Of a DNA stretch of 64,000 nt, positions 2,654 through 57,264 are shown in pieces. Source of the stretch: a bacterium (lineage in GTDB: Bacteria; Patescibacteriota; Minisyncoccia; UBA6257; UBA9933). The first letter of the stretch is position 1. Every line of letters begins with the position of its first letter. The stretch spans positions 139,601 through 203,600 of the forward strand of contig JAUYBE010000006.1 in NCBI GenBank assembly GCA_030693235.1. The letters are read 5' to 3'. The notes beneath the pieces were generated by a model. The model did not search any database and had not been told where the DNA came from. It saw nothing but the letters and a program-made list of their open reading frames with translations. Made by a program: the position numbers and the translations under genes.

Positions 2654-2732
2654 CTTTTAGGTTTTAGTTTTTAGGTTTTAGATAATAAATTTCTAACACC
2701 TAACACCTAACACTTAACACCTAATACCTAAC
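2654..2732 (+). repeat. Family A heptamer hairpin, copy 1
   Basis: (TTTTAG[G/T])4-loop-(CTAACAC)~6, ends at the TTG of rpsG. Confidence 0.95.
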
Positions 2733-3200
2733 TTGAGAAGAAAACGTAAATATAAAAAAATTCATCAACCCGACGTTCAATATAATAATATCGCTGTTTC
2801 GCGGTTTATTAACTATTTAATGAAAGGCGGTAAAAAATCCGTTGCCGAGAAATTATTTTACAAATCTTTTGCTAATATTCAAAAGGAAACTAAAACAGAG
2901 CCGCTTTCGATTTTCGAAAAAGCCCTTGAAAACGCCACGCCGCTTCTGGAAGTCGTGTCCAAGCGCGTTGGCGGCGCCAATTATCAGGTGCCTAGAGAAG
3001 TCAGGCCGGAAAGGAAATTTTTATTGGCTTGCCGTTGGATTATTGAAGCAGCTGCGTCAAAAAAAGGTAAACCAATGGCTCAAAAATTGGCCGAAGAATT
3101 AATCGCGGCGTCAAAGAACGAAGGCGCGGCTATAAAGAAAAAACAGAATGTTCATAGAATGGCGGAAGCAAACAGAGCCTTCGCGCATTTCGCCAGATAG
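2733..3200 (+). CDS. rpsG: 30S ribosomal protein S7
   Basis: RVGGANYQVP, HRMAEANRAFAHF; TTG start. Confidence 0.98.
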   Translation: MRRKRKYKKIHQPDVQYNNIAVSRFINYLMKGGKKSVAEKLFYKSFANIQKETKTEPLSIFEKALENATPLLEVVSKRVGGANYQVPREVRPERKFLLACRWIIEAAASKKGKPMAQKLAEELIAASKNEGAAIKKKQNVHRMAEANRAFAHFAR

Positions 3201-3203
3201 ATT

Positions 3204-3277
3204 AGTTTTTAGGTTTTAGTTTTTAGGTTTTAGATAAAAAAATCTAACACCTAACACCTAACACCTAACACCTAAAA
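3204..3277 (+). repeat. Family A heptamer hairpin, copy 2
   Basis: 74 nt identical to 10719-10792. Confidence 0.95.
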
Positions 3278-5428
3278 TTGCGTCAATATCCCTTAGAAAA
3301 ATATAGAAATATAGGAATAATAGCCCATATCGATGCCGGCAAAACAACCGTTTCCGAACGGGTTCTTTTTTATACCGGTGTTTCTCATAAAATCGGCGAG
3401 GTCCATGAGGGAGAGGCGATTATGGATTGGATGGAACAGGAAAAAGAAAGGGGAATCACCATCACCGCGGCGGCCACTACTTGTTTTTGGATGCCGACGT
3501 ATCGTCGGCCGCAGAATTACGCGGACTTGACGCGGACCGACGCGGAAGAAATCAAAAAAAAATATGAACATAGGATTAACATTATTGATACGCCCGGCCA
3601 TATCGATTTCACGGTTGAAGTTCAACGTTCATTAAGGGTGCTTGACGCTGCGGTTGTTATTTTTGACGGCGTGGCCGGCGTTGAACCGCAGTCCGAAACC
3701 GTCTGGCATCAGGCGGATAAATTTAAAGTGCCGCGAATTTGTTTTATCAATAAATTGGACCGGATAGGCGCTAATTTTGAGAAATCGTTTCTTTCAATCC
3801 AGGAAAGATTGAATCCCAACGCGATTGTCGTTCAAATACCGATAGGTCTGGAAGCAAATTTTGAAGGCATTATTGATTTGCTGGCAATGAAGGCTTTTTA
3901 TTTTGAAGGCGATCGCGGCGAAAAAATTATTGAAAAAGAAATACCAAACGAGTTAAAAGTTCAAAGTGAAAAGTTAAAAGTTCTATTAATTGAAAAAATC
4001 TCTGAAACCGACGAAAAATTGACGCAAAAATATCTTGAAGGAAAAGAAATCAGTTTTGAAGAACTTAAACAGGCGATGAGAAAAGCCACAATCAACAGTC
4101 AATTGGTTCCGGTTTTTTGCGGTTCGGCGTTGAAAAACAAAGGCGTTCAGTTGATGCTCGACGCCGTTTTGGATTATTTGCCTTCGCCGCTTGATTTGAA
4201 AGAAATCAAGCCGATTGAAGGAGCGCATCCGAAAACCGAAGAAAAAATTAATCGTCAACCGGCGGATAATGAACCGCTGGCGGCTTTGGCTTTTAAAATC
4301 GCCACAGACCCTTATGTCGGCAGCCTCACCTTCGTCAGAGTTTACAGCGGCGTTCTTAAGAGGGGATCTTACGTTCTGAATTCATCAAAGGGCAATCAGG
4401 AAAGAATCGGCCGGATTGTCCGAATGCACGCCAATCAACGGGAAGAAGTCGAGGAAATGTATGCCGGCGATTTGGGCGCGGCCGTAGGATTGAAAGGAAC
4501 TTCCACGGGCGATACTTTGTGCGATCCGGGCAATCCGATTGTTTTGGAAAAGATTATTTTCCCGGAGCCGGTGATTTCCGTCAGAATCGAGCCGAAAACG
4601 AAAGCCGATCAGGAAAAATTGGGTTTTGCCCTTCATAGATTATCAGAAGAAGATCCGACTTTCCGCATTAGCGGCGACCCCGATACCGGCGAGACGATTA
4701 TTTCCGGTATGGGCGAACTTCATTTGGAAATTATTATTGACCGGGCGAAAAGGGAATTTGGAGTTGAAGCGGATATCGGCAGGCCTCAGGTCGCTTATAA
4801 AGAAACTGTCAACGCCGAGTCCGAAGCTGAGGGTAGATATATCAAGCAATCCGGCGGTCGAGGTCAGTACGGCCATGTTTGGTTAAACGTTAAGTCATTG
4901 GAAAGGGGGAAAGGATTCGTCTTTGTCAATAAAATAAAAGGCGGTATTATTCCCCAGGAATTTATTCCGGCGGTTGAAAAAGGCGTTAAAGAAGCGTTAA
5001 GTAAGGGAATTTTAGCCGGTTATCCGATTGTTGATATTGAGGTGAAACTTTATGACGGTTCTTTTCATGAAGTTGACTCGTCGGAAATCGCTTTTAAAAT
5101 CGCCGGCGCGATGGCTTTTTTGGAAGCGGCAAAAAGAGCCAAGCCGGTGATTTTGGAACCGGTGATGAAAATTCAGGTAATCGCGCCTTTGGAATTTTTA
5201 GGCGACGTTACCGGCGATCTCAATGCCAAGCGCGGAAGGATTGAAAATATTTCAGATAGGGTTAATATTAAAGTGATAGATGTTAAAGTGTCCCTGGCTG
5301 AAATGTTCGGTTACGCGACCAAGTTGCGGTCAATGACTCAGGGCAGAGGAACCTTTACGATGGAATTCGACCATTATGAAGAAGTGCCATCAAATATTGC
5401 CCAGTTGATTATTGAAGGGAAGAAATGA
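3278..5428 (+). CDS. fusA: Elongation factor G
   Basis: [32 protein letters not shown] start. Confidence 0.99.
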
Positions 5429-5439
5429 TAATAATTATG

Positions 5440-55666: not shown

Positions 55667-55669
55667 TAT

Positions 55670-55764
55670 CATACGAAAGTGCGAAAATATACGAAATTAC
55701 GAAACATAAAAACAACTTCGTACATTCGTAAAATTTCGTATTTTCGTAAGAGATTTTTGTAATG
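55670..55764 (+). repeat. Family B hairpin, copy 3
   Basis: CATACGAAAGTGCGAAAATATACGAAATTACGAAA...TTCGTACATTCGTAAAATTTCGTATTTTCGTAAG. Confidence 0.88.
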
Positions 55765-57198
55765 ACTATTCTTATCAAAAACATTCAGTTAATCGACGGC
55801 AGCGGCCGACCGGCGTTTAAAGCCGATGTTTTGGTAAAAAAAGAAAAAATTCACGCCATTGGAAATTTTCCGCGTTATCGGGCAAACGAGATTATTGACG
55901 GAATGGGCGCTTATCTTAGCCCGGGATTTATAGATATTAACACCGAATCAGACCATAATTTGACTCTTTTTTCCAATCCAGCTCAGCAGGACTTTTTACT
56001 TCAGGGAATAACAACTATTATCGGCGGTCAAGGAGGCGCTTCTTTGGCGCCGCTTATTTACGGCTCTTTGGAATCAATCAAGGAATGGGCGAACACAAGG
56101 AAAATTAATATCGATTGGCACACGGCCGCCGAATTTTTTAAAGTTATGGAGCGCCGGCGATTAGGCATAAATTTCGGCACTTTAGTCGGCCATCGCACCG
56201 TCAGGCAAGCTTTAATAGGCGATCCAAGAAAAGATTTGTCGCGCAATGAATCAAGAATTTTAAATTCAATTCTGGAAAAATCTTTAAAGGAAGGAGCTTT
56301 CGGATTTTCCAGCGGTTTGGATTACCCCCATAGCCGTCAAATTTCCTATAATGAAATTAAATCTTTGGCGGAAACAACGGCGAAACATAAGGGTGTTTAC
56401 GCGGCTCGTCTTCGCGATGAAAAAAGGGGACTGCTTTCTTCGGTTAAAGAAATTATTGAAATCGCCAAAGAAACCGGCGTTAAAGTTTTAATCAATAATT
56501 TAAAACCTTTAATCGGTTACAGGAAAGATTATGAAGCTGCTTTGGAATTAATCAGTAAAAACACCGATAAAGCCGATGTTTATTTTGACGCTTGTCTATC
56601 AGATACAAACGCAGTTTTAATTTATGAATTTTTGCCCGGCTGGGTTCGGAAAGCCGATTGTGAAACGATGTTAAAAGATATTCAAACTCCGGGATTAAAA
56701 GAGAAAATTTTAAAAGAAATGCCGCGAATCAAGGGAGAAGAAATTATTCTCAACGCTCCGGCTAATAAATATTTAGTCGGAAAATCATTGAAGGAATTCG
56801 CTCAAAATCGAAATTTAACCATTGGCGAAAGCTTGCTGGAATTGATGAAAATAACCGATTTTCGGGCGGTTGTTTCTTATAAAAATATTAGTTTTAAAAA
56901 AACCGTCCAATCTTTAACTCACGAACGGGCGATTGTGGCTTCAAAAAGCGCCGGCAAATTTTTGAAATTGGTTGAAAAAGAAAAAATTATGCCGATTGAA
57001 AAAGCGATTTATAAAATTACCGGCTTGCCAACCGCAAAATTGAAATTAAAAAACAGGGGATTGGTCAGAGAAGGTTATTCCGCCGATTTGGTTCTTTTTA
57101 GGGACGCGGAAATCAGGGAAGTGATTCTAAACGGAAAAAGAGTGGTGAAAGACGGAGAATTTCAAAATATTTTGGCGGGAAAGATTTTGAGACATTAA
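55762..57198 (+). CDS. N-acyl-D-amino acid deacylase-like amidohydrolase, apparently degenerate
   Basis: IDGSG, PGFID, QGITT, GAFGFSSGL.Y, RG...EG..ADLV; metal-ligand His residues replaced. Confidence 0.75.
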   Translation: MTILIKNIQLIDGSGRPAFKADVLVKKEKIHAIGNFPRYRANEIIDGMGAYLSPGFIDINTESDHNLTLFSNPAQQDFLLQGITTIIGGQGGASLAPLIYGSLESIKEWANTRKINIDWHTAAEFFKVMERRRLGINFGTLVGHRTVRQALIGDPRKDLSRNESRILNSILEKSLKEGAFGFSSGLDYPHSRQISYNEIKSLAETTAKHKGVYAARLRDEKRGLLSSVKEIIEIAKETGVKVLINNLKPLIGYRKDYEAALELISKNTDKADVYFDACLSDTNAVLIYEFLPGWVRKADCETMLKDIQTPGLKEKILKEMPRIKGEEIILNAPANKYLVGKSLKEFAQNRNLTIGESLLELMKITDFRAVVSYKNISFKKTVQSLTHERAIVASKSAGKFLKLVEKEKIMPIEKAIYKITGLPTAKLKLKNRGLVREGYSADLVLFRDAEIREVILNGKRVVKDGEFQNILAGKILRH

Positions 57199-57200
57199 TC

Positions 57201-57264
57201 AGGTTTTAGGTTGTAGGTTTTAGGTTTTAGAACCTAACACCTAACACCTAACACCTAACACCTA
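57201..57264 (+). repeat. Family A heptamer hairpin, copy 7
   Basis: AGGTTTTAGGTTGTAGGTTTTAGGTTTTAG-AA-(CCTAACA)4-CCTA, then ATG. Confidence 0.95.

Follow-up and report, generated by a model that had tools for sequence, protein, structure and literature searches.

Seven hairpin-forming repeats, each consisting of a (TTTTAGG)-type array facing a (CCTAACA)-type array, occupy gene spacers in the window, the whole 64,000-nt stretch analysed here (G000:C17:139601-203600), which belongs to the genome of a tiny groundwater-type bacterium (G000; 610,819 bases, 18 contigs). Rather than forming a conserved control signal, these hairpins are probably selfish inserts of DNA that can be exchanged. The explanation that we favour, with a probability of about 0.55, is that they are gene-less arms of four-helix-bundle/GxxExxY cassettes, copied and swapped at co-transcribed junctions by overwriting at the DNA level, and not kept for regulation. 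The same repeat family surrounds a TIGR02436 gene, a deletion derivative of that cassette is present, whole units are shared between distant copies, and the corresponding junctions in relatives are empty, filled by another family or gene-bearing.

Gene cassettes with the same arms

Five complete PF05635 matches and two contig-end fragments were found in G000. Four of the complete matches were TIGR02436 genes, each between its own facing arrays, and the fifth was the Avd protein of a diversity-generating retroelement (DGR), adjoining the only RVT_1 match in the genome. In the cassette at G000:C16:1-434, the TIGR02436 gene lay between arms of the window hairpin family, whereas the seven window copies, with loops of 1-9 nt, enclosed no such gene. 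Cassettes with window-family arms were also present at two sites in G001, a genome of the same genus of which 376,017 bases were compared (five contigs only to 20 kb). The earlier note on this DNA had proposed looking for versions with an open reading frame (ORF) in the loop, and both four-helix-bundle and GxxExxY types were found.

A second locus, C11:58376-58480, corresponded to the C16 cassette minus approximately 330 nt of the gene. The two aligned over the left arm (27/33), the start (8/8), the last codons (15/17) and the right arm (40/45), although the 27-nt gene remnant is weak when taken alone, as 37 of 1000 shuffles were as good. Fifteen places in all lay within 2 mismatches of 28 nt of the C16 cassette right arm, including a half copy in serS with at most one mismatch.

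Among the best 80 of 558 relatives of the cassette protein, 3 were dropped at locus edges and 77 were scored; inverted flanks (score of at least 16) were detected in 63 of the 77, compared with 0 of 68 control windows. AG was present in 51/56 left units of the cassette arms and CT in 54/56 right units.

The right arm of the C16 cassette was read in frame into a pilin-like gene. In-frame fusion of a four-helix-bundle domain to a pilin-like gene through the right arm was seen at G000:C16:39-1097 and at the G001 loci L270 and L279, the domain at L279 being half deleted. At G000:C4:78326-79320, a cassette with 9-mer arms seemed to contain a further ORF, of 133 aa, located between the four-helix gene and the right arm. 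The DGR itself (G000:C11:44344-48072) comprised Avd, the reverse transcriptase (RT) and a pilin-like gene whose end resembled the region after avd.

Filled, empty and probably exchanged sites in relatives

Nine ribosomal-protein junctions were surveyed in 41 of the 51 genomes of the family, using the best 30 loci per query; the hairpin call fired on 15 of 270 shuffled spacers. Since related genomes are not independent, p values are overstated, and several of the genomes are incomplete. At seven junctions, 15 to 25 of 27-30 loci were empty, as were 17/30 at rpsL-rpsG and 13/30 at rpsG-fusA. The hairpins at the filled loci were diverse: 10 in 9 sequence groups at rpsL-rpsG, 14 in 12 groups at rpsG-fusA, and 7 in 7 groups at rpsQ-rplN. 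A whole GxxExxY cassette occupied the rpsG-fusA junction of G024, and by coordinates a second GxxExxY-type match lay between rpsG and fusA in another genome (G027:C21:2407-2742). The empty spacers were mostly 0-9 nt long, so that any insert fills the space from stop to start. Filled states were scattered over the tree of relatives, which was built from a short alignment with 11 of 27 inner branches open and gives scatter but no order of events. The comparison of filled and empty sites suggested in the earlier note therefore spoke against a conserved mRNA signal at these operons, the relatives' sites being empty or filled by other repeats, or in one case by a whole cassette.

Hairpin occupancy tracked the cassette gene. 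In genomes without a TIGR02436 match over the cut-off, 2 of 61 spacers were hairpin-filled (1 of 8 genomes), compared with 63 of 202 in genomes with such a match (24 of 33 genomes).

Between G000 and G001, 128 co-linear spacers were compared. A hairpin was present in both genomes at 23 and the spacer was empty in both at 36; 6 were filled only in G000 and 9 only in G001, each against an empty partner, and the rest were unclassed. Co-occupancy was thus above chance (odds ratio 9.5), and the repeat family was the same at only 2 of the 23 spacers filled in both. The family differed at four of the five testable window sites, copy 6 being the one with the same family; at the rplN site (copy 4), G001 carried a hairpin of another heptamer of nearly equal length (74 versus 73 nt), and at the copy 7 site a 9-mer family. 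A different family, or nothing, was also found in G001 at several window spacers occupied by other 7-9-mer families.

Arrays in coding sequence behaved in a similar way. Of 71 in-frame array sites, 28 were also array-bearing in G001, compared with 29 of 1024 control sites; the unit was another one at 25 of the 28, and 11 of these agreed within one residue in length. The in-frame segment of the elongation factor G (EF-G) gene at 3951-3982 gave gapless alignments in each of the 27 loci that span it (3 further loci do not), which indicates that the array replaces rather than inserts. For LepA, 25 loci of the 30 were parsed; the five arrays of unchanged length with high scores were all in genomes with a four-helix gene, and similar peptides with decayed periodicity persisted in genomes without one. 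In four genomes (G012:C11, G062:C19, G009:C31 and G024:C16), the LepA matches were split around PF13366 in one long frame; these are putative cassettes nested in lepA.

A possible exchange of a whole cassette was observed at C12/C16, where the G000 cassette matched the G001 allele of the other site at 331/345 positions, compared with 279/339 for the allele of its own site, with the switch at the arm edges.

Window copies, genome-wide census and start codons

All seven copies described in the earlier note were present (Table 1). The 14-mer matches numbered 26 for the left arm and 21 for the right arm, far above the shuffle means of 0.14 and 0.00, respectively. Six copies began at or within 3 nt of the upstream stop, all ended close to a start, and three of these starts were TTG or GTG, as had been noted.

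Table 1. Positions of the hairpin copies and related arrays in the window
Feature	Position	Strand	Context
Copy 1	2654..2732	+	Fills whole rpsL-rpsG spacer; rpsL stop 2653, rpsG start 2733 TTG
Copy 2	3204..3277	+	rpsG-fusA spacer; rpsG stop 3200, fusA start 3278 TTG
Copy 3	10719..10792	+	rpsD-rpoA spacer; rpsD stop 10719, rpoA start 10795 GTG
Copy 4	19049..19119	+	rpsQ-rplN spacer; rpsQ stop 19049, start 19123 ATG
Copy 5	51516..51590	-	Upstream of dnaX, divergent gap; start 51515 ATG
Copy 6	53377..53448	+	Spacer from scpB to D-Ala-D-Ala peptidase gene; scpB stop 53377, start 53451 ATG
Copy 7	57201..57264	+	Between amidohydrolase gene (stop 57198) and ftsW-like gene (start 57265 ATG)
Half copy	29659..29691	+	Single right arm, in frame within serS
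fusA heptamer array of another unit	3951..3982	+	In frame

Each window copy consisted of a left array, the loop and a right array, and on the sense strand the stop was adjoined by the G-rich arm and the start by the C-rich arm. Arms carried 3-6 units, mostly 4-5, and their length varied by whole 7-nt units. The left arm had been read as (TTTTAGG)4; the facing-array arrangement applies to all seven copies, but the left arm is mostly an alternating 14-mer in which only two of the four units are the exact heptamer. Copies 2 and 3 had exactly 74 nt in common, loop included, in agreement with the earlier note, and other distant copies also had loops in common, which indicates that whole units were copied. 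The short-loop subtype of copy 7 recurred at G000:C4:12665.

All seven copies were predicted to fold into sense-strand hairpins (z -2.5 to -4.9) with interrupted helices of 4-6 bp. In both copies folded both ways the antisense strand was the more stable (copy 2: -26.2 versus -22.2 kcal/mol for sense). The U.C mismatch that recurs along the stem had been taken as a maintained asymmetry, a view that the counts do not bear out: the unpaired C was kept in 86 of 91 inner right-arm units, no better than the paired positions 2-5 (83 to 90 of 91), and a non-canonical mismatch was absent from 21 of 56 cassette arm pairs. The mismatch is family-specific, tandem homogenisation is sufficient to explain it, and a selected mismatch as a general design was rejected.

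With a profile built from the seven window copies, 27 full copies and one half copy were detected in G000. Twenty-five of the 27 lay in the sense of the downstream gene, including one before the 16S rRNA gene and one in frame inside a cysteine-desulfurase-like gene. The sense polarity claimed for the window thus held for all seven copies there and was strong across the genome, although it was not absolute: the copy at C4:34679 was clearly reversed, and that at C11:57792 was near-symmetric (56 versus 49 bits). Polarity with respect to the replication strand was rejected as the basis of this bias, as all four copies before genes that GC skew places on the lagging strand followed the gene, including copy 5 before dnaX, where the skew is weak. 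In single arms within ORFs, the C-rich strand was in sense in 13 of 13.

The (TTTTAGG)/(CCTAACA) family is one among many repeat families in G000, where a listing of arrays with periods of 6-11 comprised 258 entries; the period was 7 in 153 of them, and a simple ORF call placed about half within ORFs. Exact-family matches in titled sequence records were mostly from Patescibacteria. A 20-nt left arm matched 123 loci across genome contigs, and a 21-nt left arm gave 0 matches in viral contigs. The family recurred in other assemblies, at the same and at other genes.

Scans for known features at the hairpins were negative. The Rfam scan of the window returned only tRNAs and no family at the hairpins, and terminator and promoter scans showed nothing specific there; none of the four copies in 2000-21000 was among the 26 sites listed as intrinsic terminators (G+C stem plus U-run). 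Target-site duplications were absent from the 20 copies inspected, in which the longest shared flank word averaged 3.25 compared with 3.33 for mismatched pairs. One Y1_Tnp match was present in G000.

Start codons differed after hairpins. TTG starts were found at 8 of 17 element-preceded genes, compared with non-ATG starts at 21 of 210 background genes (p 3e-4), and 6 of the 8 TTG-start genes have ATG in G001; rpsG, with TTG in G000, has ATG in 29 of 29 relatives examined. Family-wide, non-ATG starts followed hairpins in 7 of 56 cases and empty spacers in 0 of 114. The enrichment of TTG starts after hairpins is real, and tract overrun and compensation could both account for it. The absence of a Shine-Dalgarno (SD) sequence, also pointed out earlier, was confirmed (0/17 element-preceded genes) and then set aside as evidence, as an SD-like word precedes only 17 of the 210 background genes and the G000 16S tail lacks CCTCC, the anti-SD; the same lack is reported for about half of Parcubacteria in the available part of PMC9297842.

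Proposed mechanism, rival explanations and known systems

Under the favoured explanation, a cassette would land at a stop-start junction of 0-9 nt and fill the spacer by default, with stops in all three frames provided by its left arm and the next start directly adjoining its right arm. The cargo gene would then be deleted, and the empty unit or a lone arm could act as donor for ectopic gene conversion, with tracts ending at arm edges. Lack of MutS may aid such tracts (no MutS_V match was found in G000), and tracts one base too long would turn ATG into TTG or GTG. The host would presumably tolerate the stem, which leaves little distance between stop and start, lacks a U-tail and is interrupted at 7-bp intervals, and new families would replace old ones at sites that already carry arms.

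Several results weigh against this explanation. No copying enzyme was found; 4 of the 28 in-frame swaps change the period, while conversion needs homology; and DNA conversion alone leaves orientation by transcription unexplained. The C12/C16 allele switch sits at an assembly break common to C11, C12 and C16, with the second exit missing, so that assembly collapse may be an alternative explanation of the identity among these contigs. The common gene-less type, with its U.C mismatch, reads as the reverse complement of the cassette arm type (G.A mismatch) and hence does not result simply from loss of the gene of the C16 cassette on the spot. In only 3 of 52 cases, each of them in G000, did a spacer hairpin match a cassette of the genome that carries it, one or two cassettes being compared for most genomes; a cognate cassette for each genome was not supported outside G000. 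Examination of 47 exact-family loci elsewhere (12 duplicates, 1 further left out, 35 distinct) revealed a four-helix gene within the fetched flank in 0 of the 35. One genome (G074, 84% complete) has hairpins but no TIGR02436 match over the cut-off. The window family is kept across genera at rnc-smc, upstream of ssb and upstream of a pilT-like gene, a retention that suits long persistence or selection.

Orientation by transcription would be accounted for by a doubtful alternative, in which an Avd-like pentamer of four-helix-bundle subunits binds the arms as arrays, on RNA or on single-stranded DNA and with one repeat unit for each subunit; the resulting complex would direct copying by way of an RNA or R-loop intermediate, thereby setting the orientation. 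The four-helix-bundle protein matches XCC0516 (5 chains), and Avd pentamers grip a stem-loop through flipped-out bases (available part of 10.1101/2023.10.23.563531). The arm length of mostly 4-5 units, the AG and CT dinucleotides of the cassette arms, the 25/27 sense copies with 4/4 at lagging-strand genes, and the tracking of the four-helix gene by hairpins would all suit such binding. The missing mismatch in 21/56 arm pairs and the 3/52 own-cassette matches do not, and copying through RNA fares poorly: among genomes with a four-helix gene, hairpins occur in 12 of 18 without an RVT_1 match, compared with 12 of 15 with one, and only 4 of 75 substitutions among 25 copies fell at A. On these counts no RT is needed in the present genome, and a DGR retrohoming signature was not supported. 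The earlier suggestion of a mobile element copied through RNA is supported as regards a non-autonomous, copied and transcription-oriented element, and gains no support for the RNA step. A further, doubtful reading of our own is a transposase-free system in which facing heptamer arrays, located at junctions of transcribed genes and in loops of proteins, serve as exchangeable landing pads and an Avd-like pentamer, one subunit per unit, loads arm-bounded nucleic acid for overwriting. If true, repeat families, cargo genes, start codons and helices of essential proteins would be rewritten site by site, the excess of heptamer repeats in bacteria would be explained, and a very large orphan protein family would be given a job.

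The co-filling of spacers in G000 and G001, the presence of an RNase III gene in G000, the weaker starts after hairpins and the missing anti-SD would fit mRNA elements selected by the host, either RNase III sites or platforms for SD-independent re-initiation, in which any family serves if the fold is kept; heptamer-bearing stems of Coxiella intervening sequences (IVSs) are cut by RNase III (available part of PMC4990558). This appears improbable, as each junction is empty in about half or more of the relatives with filled states scattered on the tree, the helices are of 4-6 bp rather than 28 bp as in Coxiella, single arms occur in coding sequence as well, and the SD lack is genome-wide. Independent insertion at tolerant hotspots followed by loss, with no overwriting, is also improbable. 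It would accommodate fill rates that vary by site from 3/30 to 14/30 and the tandem and nested double hairpins that exist, but not the equal-length in-frame swaps (11/28), the gapless EF-G alignments, the allele switch at arm edges or the lack of target-site duplication. Local replication slippage, proposed for heptamers by Mrazek et al. 2007 (as cited in the available part of PMC4679880), agrees with arms that vary by whole 7-nt units; however, it can only adjust arm length, and distant copies have common loops and the alternating 14-mer. Slippage or assembly error as the maker of the arrays is very unlikely, since the family recurs in other assemblies and the flanks are unique intact genes. 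Only two RNA datasets were found (shares 0.09 and 0.06), composed of contigs of relatives mostly <95% alike, and no RNA evidence came from them; two of the relatives' contigs run through the in-frame array of fusA with no skip, which is too weak to use.

Short non-autonomous hairpin units dispersed in intergenic DNA are familiar as MITEs, the miniature transposable elements with inverted repeats, and as repetitive extragenic palindromic (REP) sequences and their paired form, REPINs; REP/REPIN are tetranucleotide-tagged palindromes beside a REP-associated tyrosine transposase (RAYT) gene, and work also exists on cyanobacterial short tandemly repeated repetitive (STRR) and small dispersed repeat (SDR) sequences. 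Unlike MITEs and REP/REPIN, the G000 hairpins have no target-site duplication, their arms are tandem arrays, and the autonomous-looking form carries no transposase.

Heptamer repeats are an unexplained excess in bacterial genomes and have been read as regulatory or as G-quadruplex sequences (PMC4679880, PMC4692102; this and the following comparisons refer to the available parts of the papers cited). Inverted GGGAATC heptamer pairs in Xanthomonas and GGGGA(C/T)T repeats in Nostoc have been described (Rehm et al. 2015, PMC4692102). The Xanthomonas pairs, of which a Xanthomonas genome has 70-75, resemble the present hairpins in having mostly four heptamers, in facing each other between aligned ORFs, mostly transcribed, and in the layout of the sense strand, where the G-rich arm is near the stop and the C-rich one near the start. 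Facing arms of about four tandem heptamers each, with co-directional ORFs on either side, were likewise found here. However, the Xanthomonas pairs are read as G-quadruplex sequences at stable loci, and the available text describes no cassette, cargo gene or family exchange; the G000 unit is A+T-rich with GG at most, in only some units, rather than GGG tracts, each unit contributes one mismatch between the arms, and one family takes the place of another at a given site. The TAACTGA repeats of Beggiatoaceae are forward-oriented, end a few nucleotides before starts with few SD sequences, lie within ribosomal-protein operons including fusA, and hold stops in all three frames (MacGregor 2015, PMC4679880). 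They differ in that almost all are single arrays, with one inverted case, and are interpreted as sites of a translational regulator, and the terms "helix bundle", "S23" and "intervening" are absent from the available text.

The stem-closed loop of rRNA IVSs may carry a PF05635 gene, in ORF-bearing and ORF-less forms (Coxiella, PMC4990558; candidate phyla radiation, 10.1101/2024.02.27.582315), and in Coxiella heptamer repeats precede the S23p ORF. These IVSs sit in rRNA and are excised by RNase III from a near-perfect 28-bp stem (PMC4990558), whereas the G000 hairpins are numerous, have short interrupted stems rather than a long near-perfect one, and occupy mRNA spacers and coding sequence, not the inside of an rRNA gene. 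The Avd of DGRs is a homologous four-helix protein that forms pentamers and binds a stem-loop in RNA (10.1101/2023.10.23.563531), and a DGR is present in G000, but the four cassette proteins have no adjacent RT and the copies show no adenine-specific change. Facing four-unit heptamer pairs (PMC4692102) and single forward arrays (PMC4679880) are thus already published. No paper in the open-licence PubMed Central and bioRxiv literature was found to link heptamer arms to TIGR02436 cassettes in mRNA spacers or to report family exchange. On the favoured explanation, heptamers would behave as gene-cassette arms that, between two species from a single genus, turn over while their sites stay fixed; they would rewrite start codons and recode parts of essential proteins, EF-G and LepA among them, with no change in length. 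Such spacers should be read with caution and not as conserved signals, and in the annotation and phylogeny of Patescibacteria the arms would give rise to non-ATG starts and unusual loop peptides.

Other arrays and neighbouring genes were also recorded. Spacers with facing arrays of other 7-9-mer families were present in the window at 1211-1314, 6305-6359, 12066-12122, 18742-18811, 20592-20687, 21092-21165, 22562-22635 and 24368-24460. Some families had a reversed arm order, with the A/C-rich arm first (L346, L348 and L020). In the rpsL-rpsG spacer of G020 (L019), one hairpin was nested in the loop of another of the same family, and at L386 an unrelated palindrome lay within the loop of a (TTTTAGG)/(CCTAACA) hairpin. 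The rpoA product (window 10795-11544) is 249 aa long, and its match to the profile is confined to the N-terminal ~247 of the 320 positions. The RNase III gene (G000:C17:89588-90344) was flanked by two hairpin elements. At L293 (G000:C5:12591-12692, 16199-16341), a full copy with a 39-nt loop stopped 2 nt short of the 5' end of 16S. Insertions carrying homing-endonuclease-like ORFs interrupted this 16S gene, and beyond the trailer there was a right arm on its own.

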